Below, piece by piece: positions 40,943-55,311 of a stretch of 64,000 bases of DNA. The notes beneath the pieces are model-generated. The model worked only from the letters and a program-made list of their open reading frames with translations. It was not told the DNA's origin and did not search any database. Within the stretch, counting starts at the first letter, position 1, and each line of letters opens with the position of its first letter. The translations under genes were made by a program, and so were the position numbers. This stretch comes from Dehalococcoidia bacterium (lineage in GTDB: Bacteria > Chloroflexota > Dehalococcoidia > SM23-28-2 > RBG-16-64-32). The DNA lies in contig CAXXTF010000001.1 of assembly GCA_963665775.2 (NCBI GenBank), positions 224,001 through 288,000 on the forward strand. Reading direction: 5' to 3'.

Positions 40943-41170
40943 ATGAAAAGAAAAGCGGGCACCCTCCTACCGATCGAGCTGTCCATCCTGGAAGCGGGCA
41001 TCGACCAGCACATGCACCAGCGCTATGAGTACGACGGCGATGACTATGTACAAATCAAGTACGATGGCATTGGGGCAGGGAGCGCGCCCGTCACACCGGC
41101 TGGCCCCGCGGCGCCGGTACCGCCTAGCGCGTCCGCGGGTCCAAGGCGTCCCGCAGCCCGTCGCCGATGA
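40943..41170 (+). pseudogene. probable truncated PadR-like regulator N-terminus
   Basis: MKRKAGTLLPIELSILEAGID follows a TTGACA, then the frame runs into unrelated sequence antisense to oppC. Confidence 0.35.
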
Positions 41171-42038
41171 AGGTAAACGCCATCATGGTAACGGCGATCG
41201 CCACGGCCGGGTAGACCACCAGCATCGGGGTGGCGAATACCGCCCGATAGCCGGAGTCCACCATCCCGCCCCAGGTGGCCGTCGGCGGCGCGATGCCGAC
41301 GCCGATGAAGCTGAGGGCGCTCTCCGCGAAGATGGCCAGAGGCACCCCGAAGGTGAGCACCACGATGAGCGGCCCCATGCTGTTGGGCAGCATATGTACC
41401 AGCGTGACGCGAGTGCCGCCGGCCCCTACCGCTCTGGCCGCCGCGACGTACTCCCGCTCCTTGAGGGAAAGCATCTGTCCCCGCACCAGCCGCGCCACCG
41501 TCACCCAGCCAACGAGCGAGATGGCGAGGATAATCACCATCAGACTCCCACCGGGCACCTCGACGTCCTCCAGCACTTGCCTCAGCAGAATGATCGCCAG
41601 CAGGTCCGGGAAGGCGTAAGTCAGGTCTGTGAAGCGCATCAGCAGATTGTCGACCAGGCGACCGCCCATGGCCGCCGCCGCCCCGATGGGCAGCGCTATG
41701 AAGAGAATCGCGACCTGGCTGAGGATGCCGACCGACAGCGAGACGCGGGCGCCGTGGATCAGCCGACTCAGCACATCGCGGCAGGTGCCGTCCGTGCCCA
41801 GCAGGTGCTCAGCGCTGGGACCGCGAAGGGCTCCCGTCGCGCAGTCCTGAGCGTTCGGGTCGTGGGGCGCCACAACATCCGCAAAGACCGCCACCAGCAC
41901 CAGGCTCGCCACGACAATGAGGCCCAGCATGGCCAGCCGGTTCCTTAGCATTCGGCGTAGCGCCTGCCTCCAGAGGGAGCGAGCCTCCTCCGCGGGCTCC
42001 AGCCAGCCCGCCCTGGCCGTCTGTGTGATCCCTGCCAT
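41124..42038 (-). CDS. oppC: oligopeptide ABC permease OppC
   Basis: HLLGTD...RD..SRLIHGAR.SL, EYVAAARAVG and GDGLRDALDPR. Confidence 0.92.
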   Translation of the reverse strand: MAGITQTARAGWLEPAEEARSLWRQALRRMLRNRLAMLGLIVVASLVLVAVFADVVAPHDPNAQDCATGALRGPSAEHLLGTDGTCRDVLSRLIHGARVSLSVGILSQVAILFIALPIGAAAAMGGRLVDNLLMRFTDLTYAFPDLLAIILLRQVLEDVEVPGGSLMVIILAISLVGWVTVARLVRGQMLSLKEREYVAAARAVGAGGTRVTLVHMLPNSMGPLIVVLTFGVPLAIFAESALSFIGVGIAPPTATWGGMVDSGYRAVFATPMLVVYPAVAIAVTMMAFTFIGDGLRDALDPRTR

Positions 42039-42041
42039 ACC

Positions 42042-42989
42042 CTATGTCCTGATCCGCGGATCGACCACGGAGTACATCATGTCCACCATCAGATTCGCCA
42101 CCACTATCACCGCAGCGTAGAAGAGCGTCACCCCCATGATCACCCCATAGTCTCGCTGGAAGACCGAAGTGACAAACTGCTTACCGATCCCCGGGATCCC
42201 GAATACGGTCTCGACGATGAACGATCCGGTCACCAGGCTGGCCGCCAGCGGCCCCGCCACGGTCAGGATCGGGATCGAGGCGTTCCGGGCAACGTGGCGC
42301 ATGAGAATCGACCGCTCCCGTAGCCCTTTCGCCTCAGCCGTGCGCACATAGTCCTGCTGGAGCACCTCCACCACGGCCGCTCGCGTGACTCGAGCCAGAT
42401 AGGCGGCTGGCAGCATCCCCAGGGTGATGGTAGGCAAGATCGCCTGCCTGGGGTCGGGCAAGAGCCACCACTTCTGCTCCCAGCCGAACACCGGAAGCCA
42501 TCCCAACTGCACGCCGAACACCACGATAAGCAGGATCCCTAGCACAAAGCTGGGAGTGCTGGCGCCCAACGTGGCGAAGGTCACGGACAGGTAGTCCACG
42601 AGGGTGTTCTGTTTCAGGGCAGCCAAGACGCCCAGGGAGACCCCCACCACCACCGCGAACACCAGGGCGAACAGCCCCAGGACGGCCGTTACCCCCAGAC
42701 CATCCACGATAATGCCGGACACGGAACGACCCTGTAGCTGAAAGGAGATGCCCAGATCGCCCTGGATGGCGTTCCCGCTAAAGGTGAGGAACTGCCGCCA
42801 GAGGGGTTCATCCAGGCCGTACTTAGCGTCCAGCTGCCGCTCCAGCGTGCTGGAAACGGGCCGTCCACTGGAATCCCACGGGCCTCCCGGCACCGCGTGC
42901 ATAAGCAAGAAGGTGACGACGGCTACGAAAAACAGAACCGGCGCCAGCCAGAGCAGCCGCCGGAGAACGAATGCCATCATAGCGAGCAT
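42042..42989 (-). CDS. oppB: oligopeptide ABC permease OppB
   Basis: VPGGPW, YGLDEPLW.Q, QDYVRTA.AKGL and DPRIR. Confidence 0.92.
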   Translation of the reverse strand: MLAMMAFVLRRLLWLAPVLFFVAVVTFLLMHAVPGGPWDSSGRPVSSTLERQLDAKYGLDEPLWRQFLTFSGNAIQGDLGISFQLQGRSVSGIIVDGLGVTAVLGLFALVFAVVVGVSLGVLAALKQNTLVDYLSVTFATLGASTPSFVLGILLIVVFGVQLGWLPVFGWEQKWWLLPDPRQAILPTITLGMLPAAYLARVTRAAVVEVLQQDYVRTAEAKGLRERSILMRHVARNASIPILTVAGPLAASLVTGSFIVETVFGIPGIGKQFVTSVFQRDYGVIMGVTLFYAAVIVVANLMVDMMYSVVDPRIRT

Positions 42990-43030: not shown

Positions 43031-44739
43031 CTATCGCTCGATTATCGCGGTCTGCCAGTAGAAGAAGTCACCAGGAATACCGTCGGCACCGGTCATCAGC
43101 AGGTCCTGGACGTAGGGCTTGACCAGCCAAGCCGTCTCGTCATTGAACAGCGCACACAGGGCGACGTCCTCGTCGATGAGGACCCCCTCAGCCCGCTGCC
43201 AGAGCCTCACCGCCTCCTGGGGATCGTCCGCGGCCAGGGCGGACTCCACGGCGGCATCGTACTCGGGGTTGCTGTAACCGCCGGTGTTCAGAGCGCCATC
43301 CTCCGTCCAGAGGAGAAGCCAGTTCTGGGGATGGTGGTAGTCCTGGGTGAAGCCGATGAAGGTAAGGTCATAGTCGCCACCGAAGAACGCCTCGAAAAAG
43401 GCCGCTCCATCCAGGGGCTCAAGGTCAACGCTTAGGCCCAGGTTCTGCTTCCACTGGCCCTGTAGAAACTCCGCCCGGGTGGGGTTAGGGTCAGTGTTGA
43501 AGTAGGTCAGTTCGACGGAGGAGGTGAAGTCGGCAGGCGGCTTGGGGTCAGAACCCGATACCTGCACCGAGTCGGGATCGAACACCAGCCCCTGTCCCCG
43601 CTCAGCATCGTAGTAGGGGAGAAGGCCGGGCGGGAGCCAGGCGGTAGTAGGATTACCAAGACCCTGCTGTACTTCGTTCACGAGGGTCTCACGATCGATT
43701 GCCTGACAGACACTCTCCCGGGCGTTGAGCGTATCGAATGGTGGGTGGGTCTGGTTGAACACAATGGCGACCGTAGTGGCCTGGGCCACCCGCCGCAATT
43801 CCGGGTCGTCAGACAGTCCCCGAAGACTGGCCAGGGGCACCGGAGCCATATCCAGCCCGCCACTCTGGTAGGCGGCATAGGCTGTATTCTCATCCTGGAT
43901 GATCGAAAAGACGATGCGCTCCAGGGTCGGACGCATATCCTGGTCCCAGAAGTTAGGGTTCCGCTCCAGGACGATGCGTTCGCCGTGATCCCAGGCCGCC
44001 AATCGGAAGGGTCCACTGGCCACCAGGTTGCCGGCTTCCGTCCAAACAGTGTTGGCGATGTCACCATGGCTCTCGATGACGTCCTGACGGAGGGCGGCAG
44101 TGGGCCAGAGGGACATTTGAAGGTTGAAGGTCGGTGTCGGCTGGATGAGCGTTACCTGAAGGGTGTGATCGTCCAGGGCACGGACGGCCAGGGCCTGGCG
44201 CAACGACTCGATCGTCCCCTCGTCCGCGTCGACAGCCTGGGAAAGCTCAGCCCCACCCTCGACGATGGTGGTGTAGTAGGTGTTGCCGTAGTAGGAGCCA
44301 ATACTGGGGTCCATGAGCCGCTGGAGGCCGTAGACGAAGTCCTTGGCCTGGATCGGCCGCCCGTCCTCCCAGACGGCATCCTCGCGCAGCTTGCGCGCAG
44401 CTTGAAGGTATAGGTAAGACCGTCCCCGCTGATGCCACCGTTCTCCCGGTTGGGGACCTCCACGGCCACATATGGATAGAGCTCATTTACAGTGGGATCG
44501 AAGCGGAGAAGCGTGGCAAAGATGTTCTTGGCCACCATCGCCTCCTCAGGGAAGGCGGCGAGGCTCGGATCGATGTAGTCGGGCTCGGCGCCTAGGGCCA
44601 CGCGCAGGGTCTGGTCTTCGGCCAGCCGGCCGAAGGATCCGCCATCCCCATCTTGCCCACAAGCAATCGCAGCAACAAGGGCGGCCAGAGCCACCAGAGC
44701 GATCGGCCAGAAACGCCATCTGTTAGGTAACAATCTCAT
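43031..44739 (-). pseudogene. oppA: oligopeptide-binding lipoprotein OppA, frameshifted
   Basis: Lipobox AIAC; TYTFKLR-EDAVWEDGRPI is split by an 11-bp duplication CGCGCAGCTTG x2 at 44383-44404. Confidence 0.85.
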
Positions 44740-44856
44740 TGCGCGCCATCCCCTTAACCTACTTACCTGCGGCAGGACACATCTTGTCCCACCTAAATAA
44801 AAAGATGGTCTGCGCGGGTTTGTGTTACATGTTCTGGCCGGAACTTTTGAGAAATC

Positions 44857-45414
44857 TCAGGAGAACGATGGATAATTAGATGAGTGATCGGGCGGGCCTA
44901 GCCGCCGTATCCGCGGCAGGAACAGCTCTCCTAGAGTGATCACCAAGCCGGCGGCGATGACCAGATCGCCAACGCTGAAGGCGTTGATCGAAGTTGGGTT
45001 TTTCCAAACCAGCGTATCGGTGAGAAACCAGAGGCGGGTGTCCTCTCGGGCCAAGAGGACATCTTTAGATTGCGGCACCCACTCACCTAGGGCTAGACCT
45101 TCTGACGGCCGGCCGATCCGCTCCAGGGTGTCGGGGCTCACGGGCATCAAGCCGCCATTGCTGGCGATAGCGACGAAGTTCAACAGCAGGCCCACGCCGA
45201 TGATCATGAGCCCCGGTCGCCGCAGGTTGGCCAAGACGAACACCAGCAGCAAGGGATAGGAAGAGACAAGCAGAACCCGCCGCGGGATATCGCTGAAGCC
45301 CAGCGGGCCAAAGATGGCGAGCAACTGCAGGGCAAGGGCCAAAAAAGCCAGTGGCCCGAGGCGGATCACCACCTTCGGGAACCACAAGCGCACGCCGAAC
45401 CTAAGACAGCGCAA
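44857..45414 (-). CDS. DUF5317-like membrane protein
   Basis: ALALQ, SY..LL.F..AN...PG..IIG.G..LN..AI..NGG.MPV, TRLWFL.D and FSVGD..I..G; start is uncertain. Confidence 0.8.
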   Translation of the reverse strand: MRCLRFGVRLWFPKVVIRLGPLAFLALALQLLAIFGPLGFSDIPRRVLLVSSYPLLLVFVLANLRRPGLMIIGVGLLLNFVAIASNGGLMPVSPDTLERIGRPSEGLALGEWVPQSKDVLLAREDTRLWFLTDTLVWKNPTSINAFSVGDLVIAAGLVITLGELFLPRIRRLGPPDHSSNYPSFS

Positions 45415-45479
45415 ACCGGGGAGGCGAAACCCCTCCGCGCAAGCCGGGACGGCCTATTCTGTTGTGGGCGATCGAACTC

Positions 45480-45569
45480 CTATCCTCGCCAGAGCGGTGC
45501 CGCAGCGGCGGCGACGAGGGCGCCGATCACTAGAAGCGAGTAGGCCATATAAGTAAGTCGTGCCTTCAT
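45480..45569 (-). CDS. 29-aa signal-peptide-like small protein MKARLTYMAYSLLVIGALVAAAAAPLWRG
   Basis: ATG 45569, TAG 45480, GAGGGAGGGG RBS and own promoter; below the ORF-track length cutoff. Confidence 0.72.
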   Translation of the reverse strand: MKARLTYMAYSLLVIGALVAAAAAPLWRG

Positions 45570-45613
45570 GATACCCCTCCCTCTCGGTATTACCCGAGTC
45601 AATGTAACCTATT

Positions 45614-45641
45614 AGTATACCAATTGCTAAAGGGATGTCAA
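45614..45641 (-). promoter_or_regulatory. near-consensus sigma70 promoter
   Basis: TTGACA-16 nt-TATACT with an extended TG and AT-rich upstream DNA. Confidence 0.7.
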
Positions 45642-45779
45642 GGGATAAATATAAGGATTTCGAAAAAAAAGCCCGTAAAGGACTTTTGCGAGCTATTATC
45701 GTCAACCGAAGCTATTACGGTCAACTGGAGGCGCCATCCGCTTCCCCTCGGGCTAGTATCCCCGGCGTCCCTCCCCAGA

Positions 45780-46073
45780 TCAGCTGTCAGCGCACCAGAT
45801 GGCCACCATCGGTTCGCCATCGGGGCTTTCGGCCGGCACGTATCGCACCATGTGCAGGTCCGCCCCGCTGCAACCGCCAACGTAAATGGCGTACTCCACC
45901 GTCACATCCGAGGTGCTGCCCGGCCAGGGCCATGAACACTCATCTTCAGACACGGCACAGCTAGTGACGGCCGAAGGAGGGCTCTCCGCGTCCGCAGACC
46001 GCGACCCGATGCTCTGACCGGCCACCAGGGCGAACAGCAGCATCGCCAACAACGCGAAAAAGCCTAATCGCAT
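45780..46073 (-). CDS. hypothetical secreted protein (4 Cys), possibly truncated
   Basis: GGGGAG RBS and N-terminal signal peptide MRLGFFALLAMLLFALVAG...ADA. Confidence 0.55.
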   Translation of the reverse strand: MRLGFFALLAMLLFALVAGQSIGSRSADAESPPSAVTSCAVSEDECSWPWPGSTSDVTVEYAIYVGGCSGADLHMVRYVPAESPDGEPMVAIWCADS

Positions 46074-46142
46074 TGTCTCCCCTAGAATAGAGGACTTTGG
46101 CCGGCCACAGTGGCCAGCATCAGGGCCAGCATGGTTACCACT

Positions 46143-46171
46143 AAGTTAAGATTCATGAAGTTAAGATTCAT
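46143..46171. repeat. 14-bp perfect direct repeat
   Basis: AAGTTAAGATTCAT-G-AAGTTAAGATTCAT. Confidence 0.85.
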
Positions 46172-46249
46172 ATCGCTCCTCCTCTGCCACCAGTCTCCCA
46201 GAGCCCTCTCGCCAAAATCTCGCCGAAAGACCGAGAGGTGACGCGCGAA

Positions 46250-46286
46250 GGGGAAAAAGGAAGCGGCCCCCTCATCGGGGGCCGCT
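46250..46286 (-). terminator. intrinsic terminator
   Basis: AGCGGCCCCC/GGGGGCCGCT stem followed by TCCTTTTT on the minus strand, after the BTAD gene. Confidence 0.65.
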
Positions 46287-46308
46287 ATCGAGGCTACCGT
46301 CTCTTGCT

Positions 46309-49300
46309 CTAGGCCGGCGATCTACCTCTGCTGATCTGGCGCTGAATCTCGTCGAAGTCCTGAGCTGTTTCCCCGCCGAGGTTTTCGGAGATGATTTGAG
46401 CATAGCGATTGTAGCTGTACTTAGCGGCTTCCAGGTGACCGGACTGAATGTAGTTGGTCATCAGACGATACCAGGCCGCCTCATTCAACTCGTCCACGCC
46501 GAGGATGCGCTGGCAGAGCTCGGCGCTACGCTTGAATTCGCCTGCCTGGCTGTAGGCCGCCGCCAGCGTCGTGAGGAGCCGCATGTACTGCTCCTCTGTC
46601 TGCCAGCGCAGCGTCTCCGCCCACTCCGAGTAGAAGTCCGAGGCGAAGGGACCGTTGTACTGCGCCAGCGCCTTCTCCTGCAAGGCCAACGCCTCTGGGC
46701 CGCCCTTCGGCGCCCTGTCCGCCTGCTGCAACGCCTGCTGAAATGCTGCCACGTCAAAGGGGAAATGCCCCTGGGGATCCAGGATGTACCGTCCTGAGTC
46801 CTTGGCGATGCAGTCAGGATAGAGGGCCTGCCGCAGGCGATAGAGGTTCGAGTGGAAGGCGCTGCCGGTCTTTTCGTCGGGAAGGTCGGGCCAGAGTGCG
46901 GCCACGATCTCATCCTTGCGCAAGGGGCGCCGGTGGCAGAGGAAGAAGAAGAACATCTCCTTGCTCTTCTCGCTGCGCCACTCCAGATCCGTGATCTCTC
47001 GTCCGTCGATCTCCACGCGAAGGTTGCCCAATCCGTACGCCTGTACCGTCGTGCCGGCGGACTCCGGCTGCGCTGTCTCCTGCGAAGCCTCCGCCTGCGC
47101 TCCCGCTGGGGCCCTGATCACCTTCAGCAACTGTCCAAAGTAACCATCGGCTATCTTGTTGGCGGCCGCATACTGAACCAGCAGCGGATTCCGCGCAGCC
47201 TCGACTTTCAGGAAGTGATCGTAGCCCAACCCCTGCACCAGGTTGGCCACAGTCTCCAGGCTCTCCAGGGCCAGCCGCTTGCGCTTAAGCGAGAAGTAGA
47301 CACCGCCCAGATGGAAGTGCGCGGTGGCCAGCTCTCGCTTGGCGTCCGCCTGCTTGAGGAGGCGACTGGTCTCTTCCAGAGACGATACCGCCTCCTTAGG
47401 CTGACCGCGGTCGCGCTGGATGAGGCCCCGCGTTAGAGTGCAAAGGCCCAACTCAAACACGCCCCCCCGCTCTTCCGCCTCAGCGGTGGCCCGATTCGCC
47501 CAAGACTCCCCATCGGTGATATCTCCCATGAGCCGGTATGTATTAGCGATGGCGTCCATAGTATAGATGCGAATGTAGGCCTCGTCCAAGTCGGAACCCC
47601 GTTCCAAGGCGGAGTTGTACAACTCCTGGGCGCCCTGGTACTCGCCCCTGTCCCGGCGGATATCGCCCAGGCAGGTCAGGAGATAGGCCTCTGCCTCCGA
47701 GCGTATCTCCTCCTCCACCTTCTCCAGGGCCTGCCGGAAGACCGCGTCGGCTTGATCGAAGTCACCCTGGAGGTAGTGCAGCATGCCCAGGTTATTCAGA
47801 TTCTGCACTAGCTTCTTGTCGTTGCCCAGCTTGGACCAGCGCTGGCGCGCCCGCATCAGATAGTCCGCTGCCTCCGAAAGCCGGCCCAGGGCTACCAAGG
47901 CAACGCCGATCTGGTCGCTCACGTGGGCAATGTCATAGGACTCGCCCTGAGCCTCGTAGACCTCCAGCGCACCCCTCAGCTCGTTCAGCTCCTTGTCGAA
48001 CTCGCCGCACATTCCGTAGGTGATACCCAACTCCTTGCGGGCCTCAGTCAAGAGAGAGGTAGGTCCATCGTGTTTGAGGAGTAGGGAGCGAGCCCTCGTC
48101 AGCACTTCCTCCGATTCCTTGTAGTCACCCTTGACCCGCAGGCACATTCCCTTCGTGACCAACGCCTCGGCCAGGGAAACCCACTCCTTCTCGGCCTCAA
48201 AGGAGACGATCGCCTCGGCCAGCAATGATAGGGCCCTGTCCATCTGATGCAGATAGTGAAGCATGCGCGCCTTCCACAGAATCAGCTTCGGCTGCGCCGC
48301 CAGCTCCTCCGGCGGGATCGCCTCCAGCCAGCCGGCAAGGGTATCCCACTTCCCCTCTCTGAACAGCTGCCAGCCGACCCGCTCCGTAACTTGCACGATT
48401 CGCTCCCAGGCGCTGGCCTGAAGGTAATGGTACACGGCCTCTTCCCACTCCTCCGCCTTCTCCTGGAGGCCGGCCGCCCTGAGGTTCAAGTCCCGGAAGC
48501 GCTGCGGCTCCTGGGCCCGCAAATGGCTCATGAGGAAGGCCCGTACCAGCTTGTTATAGCGATAGCGCGTCCGACCGTCGTCCTCCTGGACGATGAACAG
48601 ATTCCGCCGCTCCAGGAAGTTGATCGTCTCTTCAGCATCGTCAATCTCGAGCAGTTCATTCATGAATTCCGATTCGACCGTTCTAGGCACCGCGCTGCCC
48701 AACAGGAACTCCCGCACCTCCGACGGCAGCGAGTCAAACTGCTCCACCTTAATGTATGTGGCCAGCGTGTCCGAGCCCCGGAGCTGCTCCGGCGAGATGG
48801 AGGTGCGGGCTAGTCGCACCTTATCCGCCAGGAGAATGAGAGCTGCTGCCCAGCCCTCCGTGACCTCCGCAAGATGCTGACCATCGTCCAGGGAGATTTC
48901 CTTCCCCAGAACCTCTCGGAATAGACGTACGACTTCTTCGCAGCTGAAGGCGAAATCGGAGCTGGCGATCGTGGCCACCTCCTGGCGGGCGGACATCAGA
49001 GGCAGCACCGAAAGCTGGGGCATAGTGCGGGCAGCCAGGATCAGGTGGCAGTTCTCCGGCACCCGGTAGATCCACCCCTCCAGCGCCTGCCGCAGCTCCG
49101 GCGGCGCGCCGTCCAGATAGTGGAAGTCGTCGAGGATCATCAGGTAAGGCTCCCCGACGGCCTGCACAGCCGTGATCAACAGGTCGACCGCCTCTTCCGG
49201 GGATATCGGTTGGCCCTGGCGAAGGGCATGGGCCAGATTCCCTCCGAAGCTGGGGAATTGACGCTGGCCGGAGGCGAGGAGGTAGCGCAGGAAGCTCTCC

Positions 49301-49566
49301 AGATCCTGCTCCCTCTCGTCCAGGGAGTACCAGCAGACGGGAAGATCACAGGACCGGGCGAAGTCTAGGATGAGGGATGTCTTGCCGTATCCAGCGGGGG
49401 CGCTGATGATGGTGACTCGGCGCTCCAGCCCCTGGGCCACCAAGTCGAGCAGGCGCTGGCGGCGGATTATGGGAGGGCGACGGACAGGTAGAGCTACCTT
49501 GGAGGGATAGGGCACCTCCAGGGTCACTGGACCGCTACTATGCTTCTCAATAGTGTCAGCCATCAC
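46309..49566 (-). CDS. MalT-like NTPase-TPR-wHTH-BTAD transcriptional regulator
   Basis: APAGYGKTS Walker A, ILDDFH, TEGWAA, TPR helices, LWPD..FHSNLYRLR and Y.GPF..D.YSEW BTAD. Confidence 0.9.
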   Translation of the reverse strand: MMADTIEKHSSGPVTLEVPYPSKVALPVRRPPIIRRQRLLDLVAQGLERRVTIISAPAGYGKTSLILDFARSCDLPVCWYSLDEREQDLESFLRYLLASGQRQFPSFGGNLAHALRQGQPISPEEAVDLLITAVQAVGEPYLMILDDFHYLDGAPPELRQALEGWIYRVPENCHLILAARTMPQLSVLPLMSARQEVATIASSDFAFSCEEVVRLFREVLGKEISLDDGQHLAEVTEGWAAALILLADKVRLARTSISPEQLRGSDTLATYIKVEQFDSLPSEVREFLLGSAVPRTVESEFMNELLEIDDAEETINFLERRNLFIVQEDDGRTRYRYNKLVRAFLMSHLRAQEPQRFRDLNLRAAGLQEKAEEWEEAVYHYLQASAWERIVQVTERVGWQLFREGKWDTLAGWLEAIPPEELAAQPKLILWKARMLHYLHQMDRALSLLAEAIVSFEAEKEWVSLAEALVTKGMCLRVKGDYKESEEVLTRARSLLLKHDGPTSLLTEARKELGITYGMCGEFDKELNELRGALEVYEAQGESYDIAHVSDQIGVALVALGRLSEAADYLMRARQRWSKLGNDKKLVQNLNNLGMLHYLQGDFDQADAVFRQALEKVEEEIRSEAEAYLLTCLGDIRRDRGEYQGAQELYNSALERGSDLDEAYIRIYTMDAIANTYRLMGDITDGESWANRATAEAEERGGVFELGLCTLTRGLIQRDRGQPKEAVSSLEETSRLLKQADAKRELATAHFHLGGVYFSLKRKRLALESLETVANLVQGLGYDHFLKVEAARNPLLVQYAAANKIADGYFGQLLKVIRAPAGAQAEASQETAQPESAGTTVQAYGLGNLRVEIDGREITDLEWRSEKSKEMFFFFLCHRRPLRKDEIVAALWPDLPDEKTGSAFHSNLYRLRQALYPDCIAKDSGRYILDPQGHFPFDVAAFQQALQQADRAPKGGPEALALQEKALAQYNGPFASDFYSEWAETLRWQTEEQYMRLLTTLAAAYSQAGEFKRSAELCQRILGVDELNEAAWYRLMTNYIQSGHLEAAKYSYNRYAQIISENLGGETAQDFDEIQRQISRGRSPA

Positions 49567-49633: not shown

Positions 49634-51009
49634 TTACTGCCGGCCGGCATGATTAATCTGCACATCTTCCGGCTCGGCTGCCCCGGCACGATCGGGTCGG
49701 GTAGCCTCGACGCATGATTCGGCCGCGTCCGCCGGTGGCGCTGGATATCCCTGCCGGCTCCCGATACGAGAGTTGGTGCCATCATCTTCGGGCGCCGCCA
49801 AGGTCACCCGGTTGCGGCCGTTCAACTTGCTGCGATAGAGAGCCACGTCAGCCTCGTACAGCAGCTGATCGGGTCGCCGACAGGGCTCCGGAAAGGCAGC
49901 CACGCCCAGGCTTATGGTGACCCGCAGCGGCTCTGGCGAATCGCGGAGAGGGCGCTGATCATGGCCTCCACGGCCGCCCGCAGCCGCCCGGCCATGATCA
50001 GCGCCCTCTCCGCATCAGTGTCATGCAGCAGGATAAAGAACTCCTCGCCCCCGAAGCGTCCGGCCACATCGTCACCGCGCAGGGTCCGGCGCAGCACGCC
50101 GCCCACCACCCGCAACACCTCGTCACCGGCCAGATGGCCCAGAGAGTTGTTGACGTTTCGCAGGAGATCCAGATCGGCCATTATTACCGCCGTCGGTCGC
50201 GGCTCCCTCTGCAAGAGGGCGACCTCTTCCCGGAAAGCGTCCAGAGACCTTCGCGCTGTGAGCAGCCCGGTCTTGGCATCGTGGTACGCCTCTTCCTGAA
50301 GCCCGGGCACAAACAGGGCTCGGTAGAAGAGGAAAAGAGGCGCGATGGCCAGGGCGACGAAAGGCGGGGTCACCGTCCACATGACGGCCATGCCGACCCC
50401 CACACAGGCCAGGGAAATATCCGTCCCTACGCTCTGCCAGGCCAGGATACCCGATTCCCTGATCCCTATTCCCCGCGCCAGGCGCAGGACCGTCGCCACC
50501 ATGGCGTGATTCAGGACAGTAAGGGTGGATGCGGTCACTAACGCGGCCCATACCACCTGCCAGGACCCGATCTCGACGCTGTCACCCGCTACGATACGGA
50601 AATTGGCCCAGGCGACCAGGACGTTCAGCAGGTACGTGGCCATGTTGAACGTCTGGATGTACCAGGGGTAGCGATACTTTAGCCACTCCGGCAGCATGGC
50701 CAGCACCACAAGCAAGACCAGCAGCGGCGGCTCCAGGAGCAGAATCGCGGCCAGGAGGAAGGCCGGTGTGGCGTGATACGATTGTCGGTTGGGAGCATCG
50801 ACCATGAAGAGCTGGGCCGCCGCCGTCAGGGGTACCAGCAGCGCGAAGGCCAGCAGCGCCTCCGTATCCGGCAGGCCAGGGCGGTCCCCTATAGAGGGGC
50901 GGACCACTACAAAAAGGATGACAGCGCCCACGGCCAGGGCGTAGATGACCGCCAGGTATATCCGGGCCAACGTCGACAGAGCAAGCGGTGGATTCTCCTC
51001 CGCCGGCAT
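49634..51009 (-). pseudogene. membrane-sensor diguanylate cyclase (GGEEF), frameshifted near the C-terminus
   Basis: About 6-7 TM helices, DAKTGL, GHLAGD and RFGGEEF; VTISLGVA...ADVALY.SK..GRN continues in another frame after about 49950. Confidence 0.85.
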
Positions 51010-51074: not shown

Positions 51075-52411
51075 TCAGTCGCCCACGAGGACGCTCCGCC
51101 ACAAAACGCTGTCGTAGAGGATTTCGCCTGTCTCCGGGTCGATAAGGTCATTGGGGGTAGCGCCATGGTTGGCCTGACCATGGGTTTTGGCATGGATAGC
51201 GGCAAAAGCATCGACCCGCGGCGCCTGGGAACCGTCCAGTGGCTGGCCCGTCCGCATGAGACGGAACTTGACTTGGTCCGGCGTGAGATCCGGGTCATCC
51301 TCCAGCATGAGAGCGACGACTCCAGAGACGACGGCCGCCGAAGGAGATGTACCGCTCAGGCGCAGGTAGCGGCCATCCACCACGGCCTCCGGCATCGCCC
51401 GCGCTAGGTAGGAGCCACGGCTGGCCAGAGCGGAGAGGATCCCCTGACCCGGGGCAATCACCTCCGGCTTGGCGTAACCGTCCACGGTCCGGCCGCGGCT
51501 GGACCAATCGACCACCGTATCGTCGGCGGTATCGGCAGTGCCGGCGTCATCAAAGGCGCCCACGGTGATGACGTAGGGATCGTTAGCCGGGGCGTGATCC
51601 ACGGCGAACTCCTCATCGCCGTCGTTGCCGGCTGCCACAACGACCACAATGTCGTGGAACCAGGCCTGCTCCACCGCCGCGTCCAGCGGGTCCTGGAGGT
51701 AGCTGTCGGCGACGGAGGAGACGAGGAGTTCGCCACCCGGATGTCGTACTCATCCCGGTGGTCCACCGCCCACTGCAAGGCGGCTACCACGTCGCTGGCC
51801 AGGGCGCGACCCTCGCGGTCGGCCACCTTAAGGCTTAATATCTGGGCCCCGGGGGCTATCCCCGTGTAGGCATCCGCCTCACCGGCGATCCCACCGGCCA
51901 GGCTGCCGCTAAGGTCATTCCCATCCGCGACACCGCTGTCGATAACGGCGACCGTTATGCCCTCGCCGCTGATCCCCTCGTCCCAAGCGGCGACGGCGTT
52001 GACAGCGAACGGGTACGCCACTCCCAGATCAGATGTGCCGTCCTGGTCGTCGTCATTGCCAGACGCCATCATTTCGGCGTCCAGCGACACCACCAGTACG
52101 GCCGGATCGCGGGCCAGCCGGTCGATCTCCGTTGGCGGCAGCGTCGCCGCGAAGCCATCGATCAGCGGCAGCTGCGCCGAGGTCTCGACCGAGCCCGCCA
52201 GTTGGCCGCCCGCCCGGGCGGTCCCCTCCCGCACCCGCACTATCACGGGTACGTCTTCCCCTGGGTGCTGCGCCGTGTAGACGGCCACCCCGAGACGCAC
52301 CCTCTCCTGCGACCCCATATCCGCTTCGCCGAGCCCCATCCAGACCAGGGCAGCCAAGACGGCAAAGGCGGTCAATCCCCGAATCAAGTTGCGCCCAGAC
52401 ATCCTCTTCAT
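51075..52411 (-). pseudogene. secreted S8 subtilase, disrupted
   Basis: Signal peptide, VAVIDSG, VVAAGN and SGTS present; HGTH motif deleted; frameshift near 51725. Confidence 0.85.
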
Positions 52412-52454: not shown

Positions 52455-54158
52455 CCCGAATCCACCGAAGGACGGCCTTGGGGACAGTCCTTGAAGAAGC
52501 CATCGGGTGCTCCTCTGAATCTGGGATAATGGTTTTGGAACAGAAACCAGCCCGGAAACAAGGAGCACCCAATAGATGCTGCCACAGAACAAACCCGACC
52601 GTATCCGCATCCTCTTTGACGACCATCGCCTGGTGGCCAATGCCGGCCTGCTCCTGCCAGCCACCCTAGCCCGGCACCTGGGCCTGCGGGAACTCGTCGA
52701 CCATCACCTTGACCTCGGCGGAGCGCCGGGACGGGCGAACACTGGGGACAAGATGCTGACGCTGGTCGCTTCCGCGCTGGCAGGCGGCGACTGCATCGAC
52801 GACGCCGATGCGCTGCGCGCTGGTGGGACGGTCGGTGTTCTAGGCTGCGTGGTCAAGGCGCCATCCACCCTGGGGACCTTCCTGCGCAGCTTCCGGTGGG
52901 GGCATGTCCGTCAACTCGACCGCGTGAGCCGCCAGTTGTTGGCCCGGGCCTGGGCCGCTGGGGCCGGACCCGGCGACTCGCCCCTGACCATCGACCTGGA
53001 CTCGACCATCTGCGAAACCTATGGACTGGCCAAGGAGGGAGCGCGCCACCACGGCTATACCGGCGCCCGCGGCTATCACCCGCTGCTGGCCATTGCCGCC
53101 GGCACCGGCGAGGTGCTGATGTCCCGGCTGCGCGAGGGCCGGGCCAACACCGCCCGTGGCGCCGCCCACTTCCTGCGTGAGACGGTGGGGCGGGTGCGCT
53201 ACGGCGGGGCCAGGGGACAACTCACGGTGCGGGCCGACAGCGGCTTCTACGCCCACACTGTCGTTGCCGCCTGCCGGGAAATGGATGTCCGCTTCTCTAT
53301 CACCATCCGCCAGCGCGCCAGCCTGCGGGACCTGATCGAGGCGATACCAGAGGAGGACTGGACTCCCATTCCCTACTGGATGGACGGCGCCGCCGATGTC
53401 GCCGAGACGACTTACACCCCGTTCCAGACCAAGCCGGACGCCGCGCCGGTGCGGCTCATTGTCCGGCGGGTGAAGCCGATGCCCGGTTCCCAGCTCGCCC
53501 TCTTCGCCAGATACAGCTATCACGCCTTCATCACCGACCGCGATGGGGAGACGCTGGAACTGGAGGCCGATCATCGCCGCCACGCCGAGGTCGAGAACGC
53601 CATACGCGACCTCAAGTACGGCGTCGGGCTGAACCACATGCCGTCGGGGCGCTTCGCCGCCAACGGCGCCTGGCTGGCGGTCCAGGTGATGGCGCATAAC
53701 CTGGCCCGCTGGACAGCCCGCATCGGCCTGGGTCAGCAGATCGTGACCACCAAGACCCTCAGGCGGCGGGTCTTCGCTCTCGTGGGACGGATCACCCGCT
53801 CGGCGCGCCGCCTCACTTTGCATCTCCCCCGGCGCTGGCCTTGAGAAACCCAGTTCAGTCGCGCCTTGGCCCGGCTGCAAGCCATTCCATTCCCGGCCTG
53901 ACGGCCAGCCTGCAACTGACCCAACGTCCCCGCAATCTCGCGCCACCCCGGTCGCGAGAGTCCCCTGCTGCGTATCCTCTCGCCATCCCGCGCATCGCAA
54001 CTCCCGCATAGGGCCTTAGGGGCCCTGTGCGGCGACTGAAGACCGTCCGCCGGCCTCCCATCTACCCCAAGACCCCAGGCCATCTCCCCTGTAGCTCCCT
54101 CACCCACCCCCTTCCGCTGTCCTCACGCCGTCCATCCGTGTCCTTCGGTGGATTCGGG
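52455..54158 (+). mobile_element. IS1380-family insertion sequence
   Basis: 19-bp perfect TIRs CCCGAATCCACCGAAGGAC (52455-52473 and 54140-54158) and 5-bp TSD TTTAC. Confidence 0.93.
52576..53901 (+). pseudogene. IS1380 transposase with a late nonsense codon
   Basis: IDLDST, GYHPL, RADSGF and ENAIRDLK; TGA at 53842-53844 interrupts RWP*ETQFSRALARLQAIPFPA*. Confidence 0.8.
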
Positions 54159-54195: not shown

Positions 54196-55311
54196 TTACG
54201 GCCAACGCGTTGAGGAGCAGTTAAGTGCTGGTTGACAGATAGTTTGCGCCACCCGCGGGTCGAACTGCTGGCCGCCGCAGCGCTCCAGCTCTTGAGTCGC
54301 CATCTGCAGGGAGAGGACGTTGCGGTAGGAGCGGTGGGTGGTCATGGCATCGAAGGCGTCGCTCACCAGGATGATACGGGACCCGATGGGGATATCCTCA
54401 CCCGACAAGCCGTCCGGATAGCCGCCGCCATCGTAATGCTCGTGGTGATGGCCTACTATAGGTGCCGCCGCTGCCAGGGCTGGTATCCGGTTGAGGATGT
54501 CCCTGCCCACCAGCGGGTGATTCCGCACTACCGTCTTCTCTTCCTCGGTGAGGGGACCCCCCTTGAGCAGTATTCGATCGGGCATGGCCAGCTTCCCGAT
54601 GTCGTGCAGGAGAGCGGCCTCCTCGATCAGGTTCTGACGGGCTGGGGAGAGGCCTATCTCCTTCGCCACCCGCTTAGCGTACCAGGCAGCGCGGCTCGTC
54701 TGGCCGGCCAGAGCCCCCGTCTTCCGCTCCAGCGCGGCCACCAGGGCCGTTATGGGATCGCTCACCCTGCGCTTGCGCCTCCAGGCGCTGTCTTCGGCGC
54801 AGACCAGATCACCCCAGTAGCCTACTTTGTTACCGCCCACGGCCTTGGCCCAGTACATCGCCGCCTCCGCACCGTACACCAACTCCGCCTCCGAATGGGC
54901 AGACTCGGGATAGCTGGCCACCCCCAGACTGACCATCGCCTCGCCGATGGGCGTTCGCACGGCGCTCGCCACCTTCGCCCGCAGTTTCTCGGCCAGCAAG
55001 ACGGCGGCCCGCGCCGACACCTCCGGGAGGAGGGACGCCAACATGTCTCCGCCCACTCGATAGGCGGGCCCAGCCCGCGAAGCGATGACGACCCGGAACT
55101 CTTGCAGAACCCTATCGCCTATCTCCCAGCCGATGGAGTCGTTCACGAGCCGGAAGCTGTCCAGCCCGGCAACGATGACGCTTAGCGCGGTGCCTTCCTG
55201 CTCCGCCTGCCTGAAGAAGGCCGCTACCTGCTCACCGAACGCCTGATGGTCATCACCGGCAGAACCCAGGTCCAACGCCGTAGCCGGCAGGTTCACCTCT
55301 AGTGGACTCAT
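54196..55311 (-). CDS. degenerate GGDEF + HD-GYP phosphodiesterase
   Basis: YRVGGDML degenerate site; LLHDIGK, HHEHYDGGGYPDGL, DAFDAMT and QFDP. Confidence 0.88.
   Translation of the reverse strand: MSPLEVNLPATALDLGSAGDDHQAFGEQVAAFFRQAEQEGTALSVIVAGLDSFRLVNDSIGWEIGDRVLQEFRVVIASRAGPAYRVGGDMLASLLPEVSARAAVLLAEKLRAKVASAVRTPIGEAMVSLGVASYPESAHSEAELVYGAEAAMYWAKAVGGNKVGYWGDLVCAEDSAWRRKRRVSDPITALVAALERKTGALAGQTSRAAWYAKRVAKEIGLSPARQNLIEEAALLHDIGKLAMPDRILLKGGPLTEEEKTVVRNHPLVGRDILNRIPALAAAAPIVGHHHEHYDGGGYPDGLSGEDIPIGSRIILVSDAFDAMTTHRSYRNVLSLQMATQELERCGGQQFDPRVAQTICQPALNCSSTRWP

Follow-up and report, generated by a model that had tools for sequence, protein, structure and literature searches.

The short hydrophobic peptide (SHP) pheromones are about 20 to 35 amino acids (aa) long and have a basic N terminus and a hydrophobic body, and the enterococcal sex pheromones are cut from lipoprotein signal peptides through signal peptidase II, Eep, and PptAB. 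For the Chloroflexota, no description of peptide signalling, RRNPP systems included, was found in the literature, as judged from titles and the opening parts of abstracts. Here we describe a 29-aa gene, sORF1, that precedes a gene for a DUF5317 membrane protein on the minus strand of a 64,000-nucleotide (nt) stretch of DNA (the window) from a Dehalococcoidia bacterium of the phylum Chloroflexota (assembly GCA_963665775.2, contig CAXXTF010000001.1, positions 224,001 to 288,000). A sequence-only reading of this DNA had proposed the two genes as a candidate peptide pheromone and its maturase. The analysis indicated that sORF1 is almost certainly a functional gene coupled to DUF5317. No literature on DUF5317 (PF17248) was found, and no Pfam or NCBIfam model matched any member of the peptide family that was tried.

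The sORF1 gene and its expression signals

Read from 45641 down to 44857 on the minus strand, the locus comprises a promoter, a GGAGG ribosome-binding site (RBS), sORF1, an 86-nt spacer, and the DUF5317 gene, and two direct repeats lie upstream of the promoter.

45725..45710 and 45706..45691, minus strand: two direct repeats, GTTGACnnTAATAGCT, with a period of 19 nt; a candidate operator
45614..45641, minus strand: sigma-70-type promoter TTGACA-16-TATACT, with the -35 TTGACA at 45641..45636 and the -10 TATACT at 45619..45614
45570..45613, minus strand: 5' leader with a small stem-loop (CUCGG-loop-CCGAG) and the RBS GGAGG (45580..45576), from sequence and folding
45480..45569, minus strand: sORF1, a 29-aa single-pass mini-protein, MKARLTYMAYSLLVIGALVAAAAAPLWRG, consisting of a basic N terminus, one transmembrane (TM) helix, a junction rich in Ala that ends in A-P, and four residues after the Pro
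45394..45479, minus strand: 86-nt spacer between sORF1 and DUF5317, containing the GGAGG/CCUCC hairpin proposed earlier
44857..45393, minus strand: DUF5317 membrane protein (PF17248), 178 aa from the GTG at 45393

The open reading frame (ORF) listing of the window gave sORF1 only within a 40-aa ORF starting from an upstream TTG. When 30 loci from relatives were inspected by eye, a hydrophobic ORF of 24 to 32 aa, with an RBS of the AAAGGGGG type and 45 to 100 nt upstream of DUF5317, was found in all 28 loci that carried upstream DNA. The set was widened by 80 loci from public genomes of Dehalococcoidia, Anaerolineae, Caldilineae, and others, and a fixed rule was applied that demanded an ORF of 18 to 50 aa, a hydropathy of at least 2.0 over a 15-residue window, and at most 22 residues after that window. 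Of 83 distinct Chloroflexota regions preceding DUF5317, 79 contained such an ORF; among the controls, it turned up in 2 of the 83 reverse-complemented regions and in 81 of 1660 shuffled ones. Among the four misses, L004 and L016 carried an ORF just below the hydrophobicity threshold, and L083 and L106 had none. A stricter motif rule picked out 58 of the 83 upstream regions, none of the 83 reverse complements, and none of the 1660 shuffles.

Codon-level selection was evident as well. Across 12 ungapped 29-aa members (66 pairs), the mean proportion of synonymous differences (pS) was 0.62 and that of nonsynonymous differences (pN) 0.31; the median dN/dS was 0.35 (55 pairs), versus 2.4 in the +2 frame control, and the entropies at codon positions 1, 2, and 3 were 0.86, 0.57, and 1.33. 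Thus, the two expectations of the sequence-only reading, namely that small hydrophobic ORFs with an RBS recur upstream of DUF5317 homologues and that they are conserved at the codon level, were both borne out, and sORF1 is a real gene, under selection and paired with DUF5317. In its own genome it is single copy (E 3.5e-13, with the next best match at E 1, among 53182 small ORFs). Contigs of four runs differed at 15 positions over 1901 nt, none of them within sORF1, which is not significant for 90 nt. Among the 22 runs listed, none was an RNA run holding the locus.

The promoter that the sequence-only reading had called near-consensus matched 11 of 12 consensus positions in a promoter scan and carries the TG of an extended -10 before its -10 element. 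The GGAGG RBS and the 29-aa ORF that follows it could likewise be read directly in the sequence, the RBS lying 6 nt ahead of the sORF1 ATG. Three promoter-like sites were counted in the 3-kb region, versus 0.8 ± 0.9 in shuffles. Alignment of 14 upstream regions determined that the promoter region as a whole was strikingly conserved, and CCCTTGACA within it was invariant in 14 of 14 aligned relatives. Other strains have TATGCT as the -10 (45616 T>C, contigs of runs X7 and X8). In several relatives, a palindrome, TCCCAAT-N3-ATTGGGA, was seen between the -35 and -10 elements, and it is degenerate in the window (45620..45635); its position inside an otherwise near-consensus promoter would make it a possible repressor site. 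In the same 14 upstream regions, the direct repeats correspond to a single copy, CTTGAC[CG]ATAAC, about 63 nt upstream of the -35, in which T..C..TAA was invariant. The motif TTGAC[CG][AG]TAA[TC] occurs four times in the 2.35-Mb genome, twice at this locus. A genome-wide regulon read through this operator-like motif was thus rejected, as the motif is not spread over the genome, and the repeats are taken as a candidate operator only, to which the SARP-type regulator described below may bind.

On folding, the leader stem-loop was weak (-9.3 kcal/mol, z -1.09), and relatives show an equivalent ACCC-loop-GGGTAAT element together with the AAAGGGGG RBS. The GGAGG/CCTCC hairpin of the sequence-only reading did not hold up as a structure: it can be drawn in the spacer at -13.3 kcal/mol, at least as stable a fold was obtained in 142 of 200 shuffles (z +0.59), the full spacer folded at z +1.17 versus shuffles, RNAalifold found no consensus base pair in the spacer among 12 relatives, and no T-run follows the hairpin. 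A role of this hairpin as an attenuator or terminator was thereby rejected, since it was no better than shuffles and not conserved in the 12 relatives. An Rfam E-value search of 44000..47000 gave no match, and therefore no known riboswitch or leader lies there.

The peptide family and the DUF5317 protein

All members of the peptide family share a common plan of a short basic N terminus, one hydrophobic helix, a small-residue junction, and a short tail. The segment before the helix was net positive in 22 of 22 window-type and 31 of 32 Anaerolineae-type sequences, from which the positive-inside rule would place the N terminus inside and the tail outside. The junction was the least variable part, and the tails varied more. 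It reads AAAAP, SSVAP, or AVAP in relatives of the window, GAGAP in Anaerolineae, and AGGAS in the lineages with exporter fusions described below; its A-P was invariant in 32 of 32 Anaerolineae-type sequences, and the sole invariant column among the 22 window-type sequences was the alanine before the junction Pro. Of the 22 window-type rows, 19 gave a tail that could be parsed; in 18 of them it comprised 4 to 5 residues from the Pro (such as PLWRG, PFIR, and PWMFP), and an aromatic residue was present in 17 of these 19, in line with the short, often aromatic tail expected from the sequence-only reading. Cys was absent from the window peptide and from the 19 parsed tails. Anaerolineae tails were mostly about 8 to 9 residues from the Pro (for example EDSGGFFH), followed a motif x-x-x-G-x-[FI]-G-[GH], and contained Cys in 7 of 32 cases. 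In the fusion lineages the tail was nearly constant (LKGF or FKGW, within ALAGGAS[LF][KR]G[FW]).

The Anaerolineae-type profile retrieved 296 clusters in a word-indexed search and 459 representative clusters in an exhaustive one. Among the 120 matches listed from the word-indexed search, every name given by the source was "hypothetical protein", and none had a Pfam domain. In the best 150 of the 459 clusters, which are 36 to 98 aa long, the match lay at the C-terminal end. The analysis thereby defines a large family of membrane peptides (24 to 50 aa) that has no name and whose shortest members escape standard gene callers.

The protein encoded downstream is a DUF5317 member by its match to PF17248 (E 2.1e-26; 93.2 bits, above the gathering score of 25; residues 15 to 160). 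It likely starts at GTG 45393 rather than TTG 45414, because the alignment with homologues begins at residue 9 of the longest ORF. No clear RBS precedes it, versus the strong RBS of the peptide gene. DUF5317 occurs once in this genome and was found in 26 of 41 related genomes. In an AlphaFold2 model (mean pLDDT 85.8), TM helices span residues 13–28, 36–55, 60–78, and 141–164, and a loop of about 60 residues with short strands lies between TM3 and TM4. Three motifs are conserved, NGGLMPV, [LF]x[ST]D, and FS[IV]GDxxIxxG; NGGLMPV at the end of TM3 and FS[IV]GD at the start of TM4 flank the extramembrane loop. Over 22 sequences, Q23, F52, N56, G68, N72, G80-G81-L82-M83, K110, S140, G142, D143, and G149 were invariant, and N79, P84, and D126 nearly so. 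By the predicted topology, these two flanking motifs would lie on the same outer face of the membrane as the peptide junction. One homologue (L028, 1522..2187) carries a C-terminal Cys-rich extension (CCSNCGW...CGNCE) that is zinc-ribbon-like.

A weak likeness of DUF5317 to signal peptidase II (LspA) was also found. Comparison by hhalign with 20 LspA sequences from the same genomes aligned 46 columns at a probability of 33% (E 4.5e-4), and at that probability paired FS[IV]GD with FNVAD and [LF]x[ST]D with VTDF of LspA. We treat this likeness as a lead, suggested by aligned motifs, and not as membership. LspA was not among the Foldseek or VIA-align matches listed for the DUF5317 model, and such a missing entry does not exclude a shared fold.

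Tandem copies, exporter fusions, and neighbouring genes

The module varies in ways that bear on its function. Four tandem peptide genes lie upstream of DUF5317 in Ornatilinea apprima (L061/L133; 796..1416 in L133) and in L079, and the tandem copies share identical tails (..AAGAPFCVGGVGG and ..SAGAPGASGW). In seven database proteins of about 700 aa, DUF5317 (residues ~26–175) is fused to an MFS_3/MFS_1 transporter, MFS_3 being a "secretion effector" transporter type. DUF5317 was detected in 90 of 301 sampled Chloroflexota genomes (one unpublished genome, G223, being counted among the positives), in many of them within frames of 610 to 760 aa. The gene order that emerged from 17 fusion loci was a SARP regulator, a mini-ORF, a membrane HD-GYP protein (470–514 aa), and the DUF5317-MFS fusion, so that the HD-GYP gene separates the peptide gene from DUF5317. 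A mini-ORF of the form MK.RL...ALAGGAS[LF][KR]G[FW] was found by regular expression in 12 of the 15 fusion loci with at least 3 kb upstream, and by eye in one more (L187).

One locus lies in another phylum. A Subdoligranulum variabile replicon (Firmicutes, L131) encodes, in this order, MKKILFALASLCSLVLASGAFFCVR, a membrane HD-GYP protein, DUF5317, and a GGDEF protein; MKKILFALASLCSLVLASGAFFCVR is the only match to the regular expression on the plus strand of 8.3 kb, and its RBS is weak. A metagenome scan with the Subdoligranulum protein recovered 40 loci that were nearly identical to one another, plus the distant fragments L175 and L176, of which L176 has no upstream DNA. Because the 40 copies are of the same species, they add up to one Firmicutes observation only. 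Separately, a metagenome-assembled genome labelled Acidobacteria (L038/G042) holds a Chloroflexota-like DUF5317 contig, which is probably mis-binned, because none of 250 other genomes of that phylum has DUF5317. No DUF5317 was found in the viral contigs searched.

Around the sORF1-DUF5317 pair, the window contains the following genes.

54196..55311, minus strand: GGDEF + HD-GYP protein, beyond the GGDEF gene and a subtilase
49912..51009, minus strand: GGDEF-domain protein, directly upstream of the regulator
46309..49566, minus strand: 1085-aa regulator with AAA_16 (STAND NTPase), MalT-like TPR, winged-helix part, and BTAD (Pfam)
46082..46171, minus strand: sORF2, another hydrophobic mini-ORF of 29 aa, MNLNFMNLNLVVTMLALMLATVAGQSPLF, which has the RBS GAGGAGGAG and ends 9 nt before the next gene
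45780..46073, minus strand: secreted protein of 97 aa; it has a signal peptide, ends in W-C, and contains four invariant Cys and the motif DLH..RY (alignment of nine)
43031..44739, minus strand: Opp-type peptide-binding lipoprotein (SBP_bac_5), its gene broken around 44152..44314 into two frames that overlap
42989..42042 and 42038..41124, minus strand: two OppB/OppC-type ABC permease genes, downstream of SBP_bac_5

The regulator is a SARP/BTAD member by its BTAD match (E 6.2e-18, residues 937 to 1078). Its winged helix-turn-helix part is predicted from an alignment; Trans_reg_C was detected in the homologous regulator of a fusion locus. Among 45 long same-strand upstream ORFs selected from the loci, BTAD was present in 43 and TPR in 44, and by tblastn such a regulator stood upstream in 57 of the 64 loci with at least 1.5 kb of upstream DNA. 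The genome, 91% complete, has no other BTAD protein and thus holds one sORF1, one DUF5317, and one BTAD protein (1:1:1). At E ≤ 1e-10, BTAD was found in 25 of 26 DUF5317-positive relatives versus 2 of 15 DUF5317-negative ones, the relatives being kin and not independent. These data establish that the module is conserved. A role in anti-phage defence was tried and rejected: PADLOC, run on five proteins, matched the regulator to no more than a generic TPR model (E 6.7e-6) and gave nothing for the peptide, DUF5317, the Cys protein, or the GGDEF protein.

Downstream of DUF5317, the neighbours at 65 loci were HD-GYP (14), SBP_bac_5 (12), GAF (8), an NHLP-clan "Frankia_peptide" ORF (7), and fumarase (6), and in three contexts enzymes of cyclic di-GMP (c-di-GMP) lie next to DUF5317. 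Since DUF5317 has such HD-GYP and GGDEF neighbours at other loci, the GGDEF and HD-GYP genes of the window are presumed to be linked to the module. Between them, a subtilase (Peptidase_S8) is split into two ORFs (51075..52411, minus strand) and adjoined by a DDE transposase (52576..53844, plus strand); this transposase may have separated the c-di-GMP genes from the module. The frame break of the SBP_bac_5 gene is either strain-specific or an assembly error, because contigs of two other runs (X7 and X8) carry an extra T after 44282.

ORFs of about 100 aa that match PF14407 ("Frankia_peptide") were seen downstream of DUF5317 in L057, L065, L079, L087, L094, L097, L098, L102, and L133. They resemble precursors of ribosomally synthesized and post-translationally modified peptides and follow DUF5317 in Anaerolineae; the L057 ORF, the only member scanned against NCBIfam, gave a weak, sub-cut-off match to the Os1348 NHLP-clan model. 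PF14407 was not found in the genome of the window.

The 97-aa secreted protein, which has no Pfam or NCBIfam family, is kept between the regulator and sORF1 in the relatives of the window. sORF2 resembles the signal peptide of this next gene (..ALVAGQS..), and the pattern M[RK]L.LLV.M.AL.LA.VAGQS.FI recurs in 12 related loci as one or two tandem copies. By its sequence, sORF2 looks like a conserved "signal-peptide-only" minigene.

Possible roles of the pair and comparison with known systems

Because peptide genes occur in tandem, the peptide RBS is strong versus the weak one of DUF5317, conservation centres on the junction, and exporter fusions exist, we read the pair as a precursor with a dedicated release or export factor. 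In this reading, which we put forward tentatively as the likeliest of those considered, though short of probable, the peptide is precursor or cargo, DUF5317 is its partner for release or export at the membrane, and the product acts as a cue. For such a scheme we infer the topology, the cleavage or export step, the signalling, and the identity of the receptor. The sORF1 product would be a signal-peptide-like mini-protein with almost no cargo, leaving a tail of 3 to 11 residues outside, and the strong promoter and RBS would drive its synthesis together with that of the 4-TM DUF5317. At the outer leaflet, DUF5317 would recognise the junction, and the peptide, or else its C-terminal tail, would be released or exported by it, in some lineages jointly with the fused MFS_3 exporter. 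The predicted placement of the conserved residues of both partners at the outer face of the membrane would fit such maturation or export. The candidate reader of the cue in the lineage of the window would be the adjacent STAND-TPR-SARP regulator, with uptake by the Opp-type transporter as a possible preceding step; elsewhere the membrane HD-GYP c-di-GMP phosphodiesterase may take this part, and there the HD-GYP and GGDEF neighbours suggest c-di-GMP as the output.

A stable complex would explain the co-location equally well. The uncleaved sORF1 would then pack on the four DUF5317 helices as a five-helix sensor or adaptor for membrane HD-GYP/GGDEF proteins, or as an MFS accessory, and nothing would be released. 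Strict co-location with a 1:1 copy number in this genome agrees with such a subunit, as do the c-di-GMP enzymes that neighbour DUF5317 in three contexts, the lack of a catalytic fold match for DUF5317, and the tail motifs kept within lineages (ALAGGAS[LF][KR]G[FW], and x-x-x-G-x-[FI]-G-[GH] in Anaerolineae). The constant tail of the fusion lineages fits a structural contact better than it fits a diversifying pheromone. Further results weigh against release of a cue. No protease or transporter fold or family could be recognised in DUF5317 by Pfam, PDB profile, Foldseek, or VIA-align: the sequence profile search of the PDB gave no match, Foldseek with the model returned nothing at E ≤ 1e-3, and VIA-align found generic helical bundles only (Z ≤ 8.6). 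The GNxxDR aspartate, which in LspA belongs to the first of two catalytic Asp motifs and lies at the end of TM3, has no counterpart, the end of TM3 in DUF5317 reading NGGLMP. SBP_bac_5 stood downstream in only 12 of the 65 loci, all of them close relatives, and the hairpin of the sequence-only reading was at chance level. The cross-phylum case rests on one species, the Firmicutes locus being a single observation, and no peptide ORF was seen in the 2.7 kb of L175, which is from another lineage. Against a stable subunit, the four identical-tail tandem copies at two loci and the far stronger peptide RBS argue for an excess of peptide, conservation peaks at the membrane-edge junction and not on a helix face, and an HD-GYP gene intervenes between the peptide gene and DUF5317 in the fusion loci. 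No peptide-DUF5317 fusion and no peptide above 98 aa occurred among the best 150 of the 459 relatives (all 36–98 aa), which can be counted against the subunit and which, taken by itself, is neutral between precursor and subunit. We hold the stable subunit to be somewhat less likely than the precursor, and a strong rival to it. The claim of the sequence-only reading that DUF5317 matures or exports the peptide and frees a short Trp-containing signal has accordingly fared unevenly: the tandem genes, the MFS_3 fusions, and the predicted shared outer face are in its favour, and the missing protease fold and the conserved tail are not.

Other explanations fit less of the evidence. It is quite improbable that sORF1 encodes a membrane-active peptide, like a leaderless bacteriocin or toxin, with DUF5317 as the immunity protein and the MFS protein as exporter. 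Small hydrophobic peptides that are sometimes in tandem, an adjoining membrane protein gene, and exporter fusions would suit it. Bacteriocin loci, however, are patchy and mobile, unlike this module, which several classes of the phylum keep at one copy per genome, in a conserved order and with its own dedicated regulator; the peptide, moreover, is a plain TM helix whose N terminus is basic and not an amphipathic cationic one, and PADLOC gave nothing beyond the generic TPR match on the regulator. That sORF1 is a leader ORF whose translation merely tunes DUF5317 expression, by attenuation through the spacer hairpin and with a functionless peptide, has a very low probability. Such a leader would lie, as sORF1 does, upstream in the same transcript, and the hairpin can be drawn; yet the amino acids are under purifying selection (dN/dS 0.35), the pattern is kept across classes despite DNA divergence, the hairpin is at shuffle level and not conserved, and another gene stands between the peptide gene and DUF5317 in fusion loci. 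Short hydrophobic ORFs did arise in 81 of 1660 shuffles, as a chance ORF in this AT-poor intergenic region would require, but the 79 of 83 loci versus 2 of 83 on the opposite strand, the codon-position pattern, the conserved strong RBS, and the 459 sister-type clusters leave chance with a negligible share.

The precursor reading could be extended to an ancient peptide-signalling pathway across phyla (Chloroflexota and at least some Firmicutes) that joins the peptide and DUF5317 to either a SARP regulator or a c-di-GMP enzyme, and in which DUF5317 would be a new peptidase or export family remotely related to signal peptidase II that frees a cue from "cargo-less signal peptides", with sORF2 as a further substrate. 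We consider this extension unlikely; if it were true, the cue released by DUF5317 would set c-di-GMP levels or transcription. Whichever reading applies, DUF5317 gains a concrete, testable partner and a context. A module linking a mini-peptide to a STAND-TPR-SARP regulator and c-di-GMP enzymes would raise the prospect of peptide signalling in Chloroflexota, and the cultured Ornatilinea apprima with its four tandem copies is a possible experimental strain.

Compared with AgrD/AgrB, the pair has in common a tiny precursor gene co-transcribed with that of a small polytopic membrane protein, for which processing or export of the precursor is proposed, with a regulator alongside. However, a Pfam scan of DUF5317 at E ≤ 0.1 returned PF17248 only, so DUF5317 is not an AgrB. 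The window peptide is likewise not an AgrD: it has no Pfam or NCBIfam match and no Cys for a thiolactone, and it is a plain TM helix with a tail of 4 to 5 residues instead of an amphipathic leader, core, and charged tail. Moreover, the gene order is reversed here, and no AgrC/AgrA two-component pair is present. With the RRNPP systems (Phr/Rap, PapR/PlcR, and NprX/NprR) and SHP/Rgg, the locus shares a TPR regulator beside a small peptide gene, here with an Opp-type importer adjacent, and a signal-peptide-like sequence with a short tail that would be compatible with secretion, trimming, and re-import; the active part would be the last few residues at the C terminus. It differs in that the candidate receptor of the window is an AAA_16 + TPR_MalT + BTAD protein, with no RRNPP family among the 23 Pfam matches obtained, and is thus no RRNPP member, that the window peptide has no pro-region, that the DUF5317 partner has no RRNPP counterpart, and that the phylum is Chloroflexota. 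As with the enterococcal pheromones, the active peptide would derive from a signal-peptide-like sequence, and the junction L-G-A-G-A-P is like a lipobox without its Cys.

LspA itself is N-in/C-in, and the same topology is predicted for DUF5317. Both proteins have four TM helices, and FS[IV]GDxxIxxG at the start of TM4 in DUF5317 resembles the catalytic motif FN[VI]ADxxIxxG of LspA. DUF5317 nonetheless has no match to Peptidase_A8 (PF01252) at E ≤ 0.1 and is not an LspA member, and a bona fide LspA is encoded elsewhere in the genome (C1:621957-622355). The peptidase-containing ABC transporters (PCATs) for double-glycine leader peptides offer an analogy, in architecture only, in that a small accessory domain, exporter-fused or free-standing, would act beside small precursors that are sometimes multi-copy; here, however, MFS_3 is not an ABC transporter, DUF5317 is a 4-TM domain and not a cytoplasmic C39 peptidase, and the conserved site follows the helix rather than marking the end of a GG leader. 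In small subunits of the KdpF, CydX, and AcrZ type, a single TM helix of 25 to 50 aa is encoded first in the operon of its partner, as it is here; sORF1 differs from them in having no family match, in the existence of tandem multi-copy genes, and in conservation that peaks at the post-helix junction. The sORF1-DUF5317 pair thus belongs to none of Agr, RRNPP, and LspA, and by analogy it would fit an AgrD/AgrB or peptidase-exporter logic built from unrelated parts.

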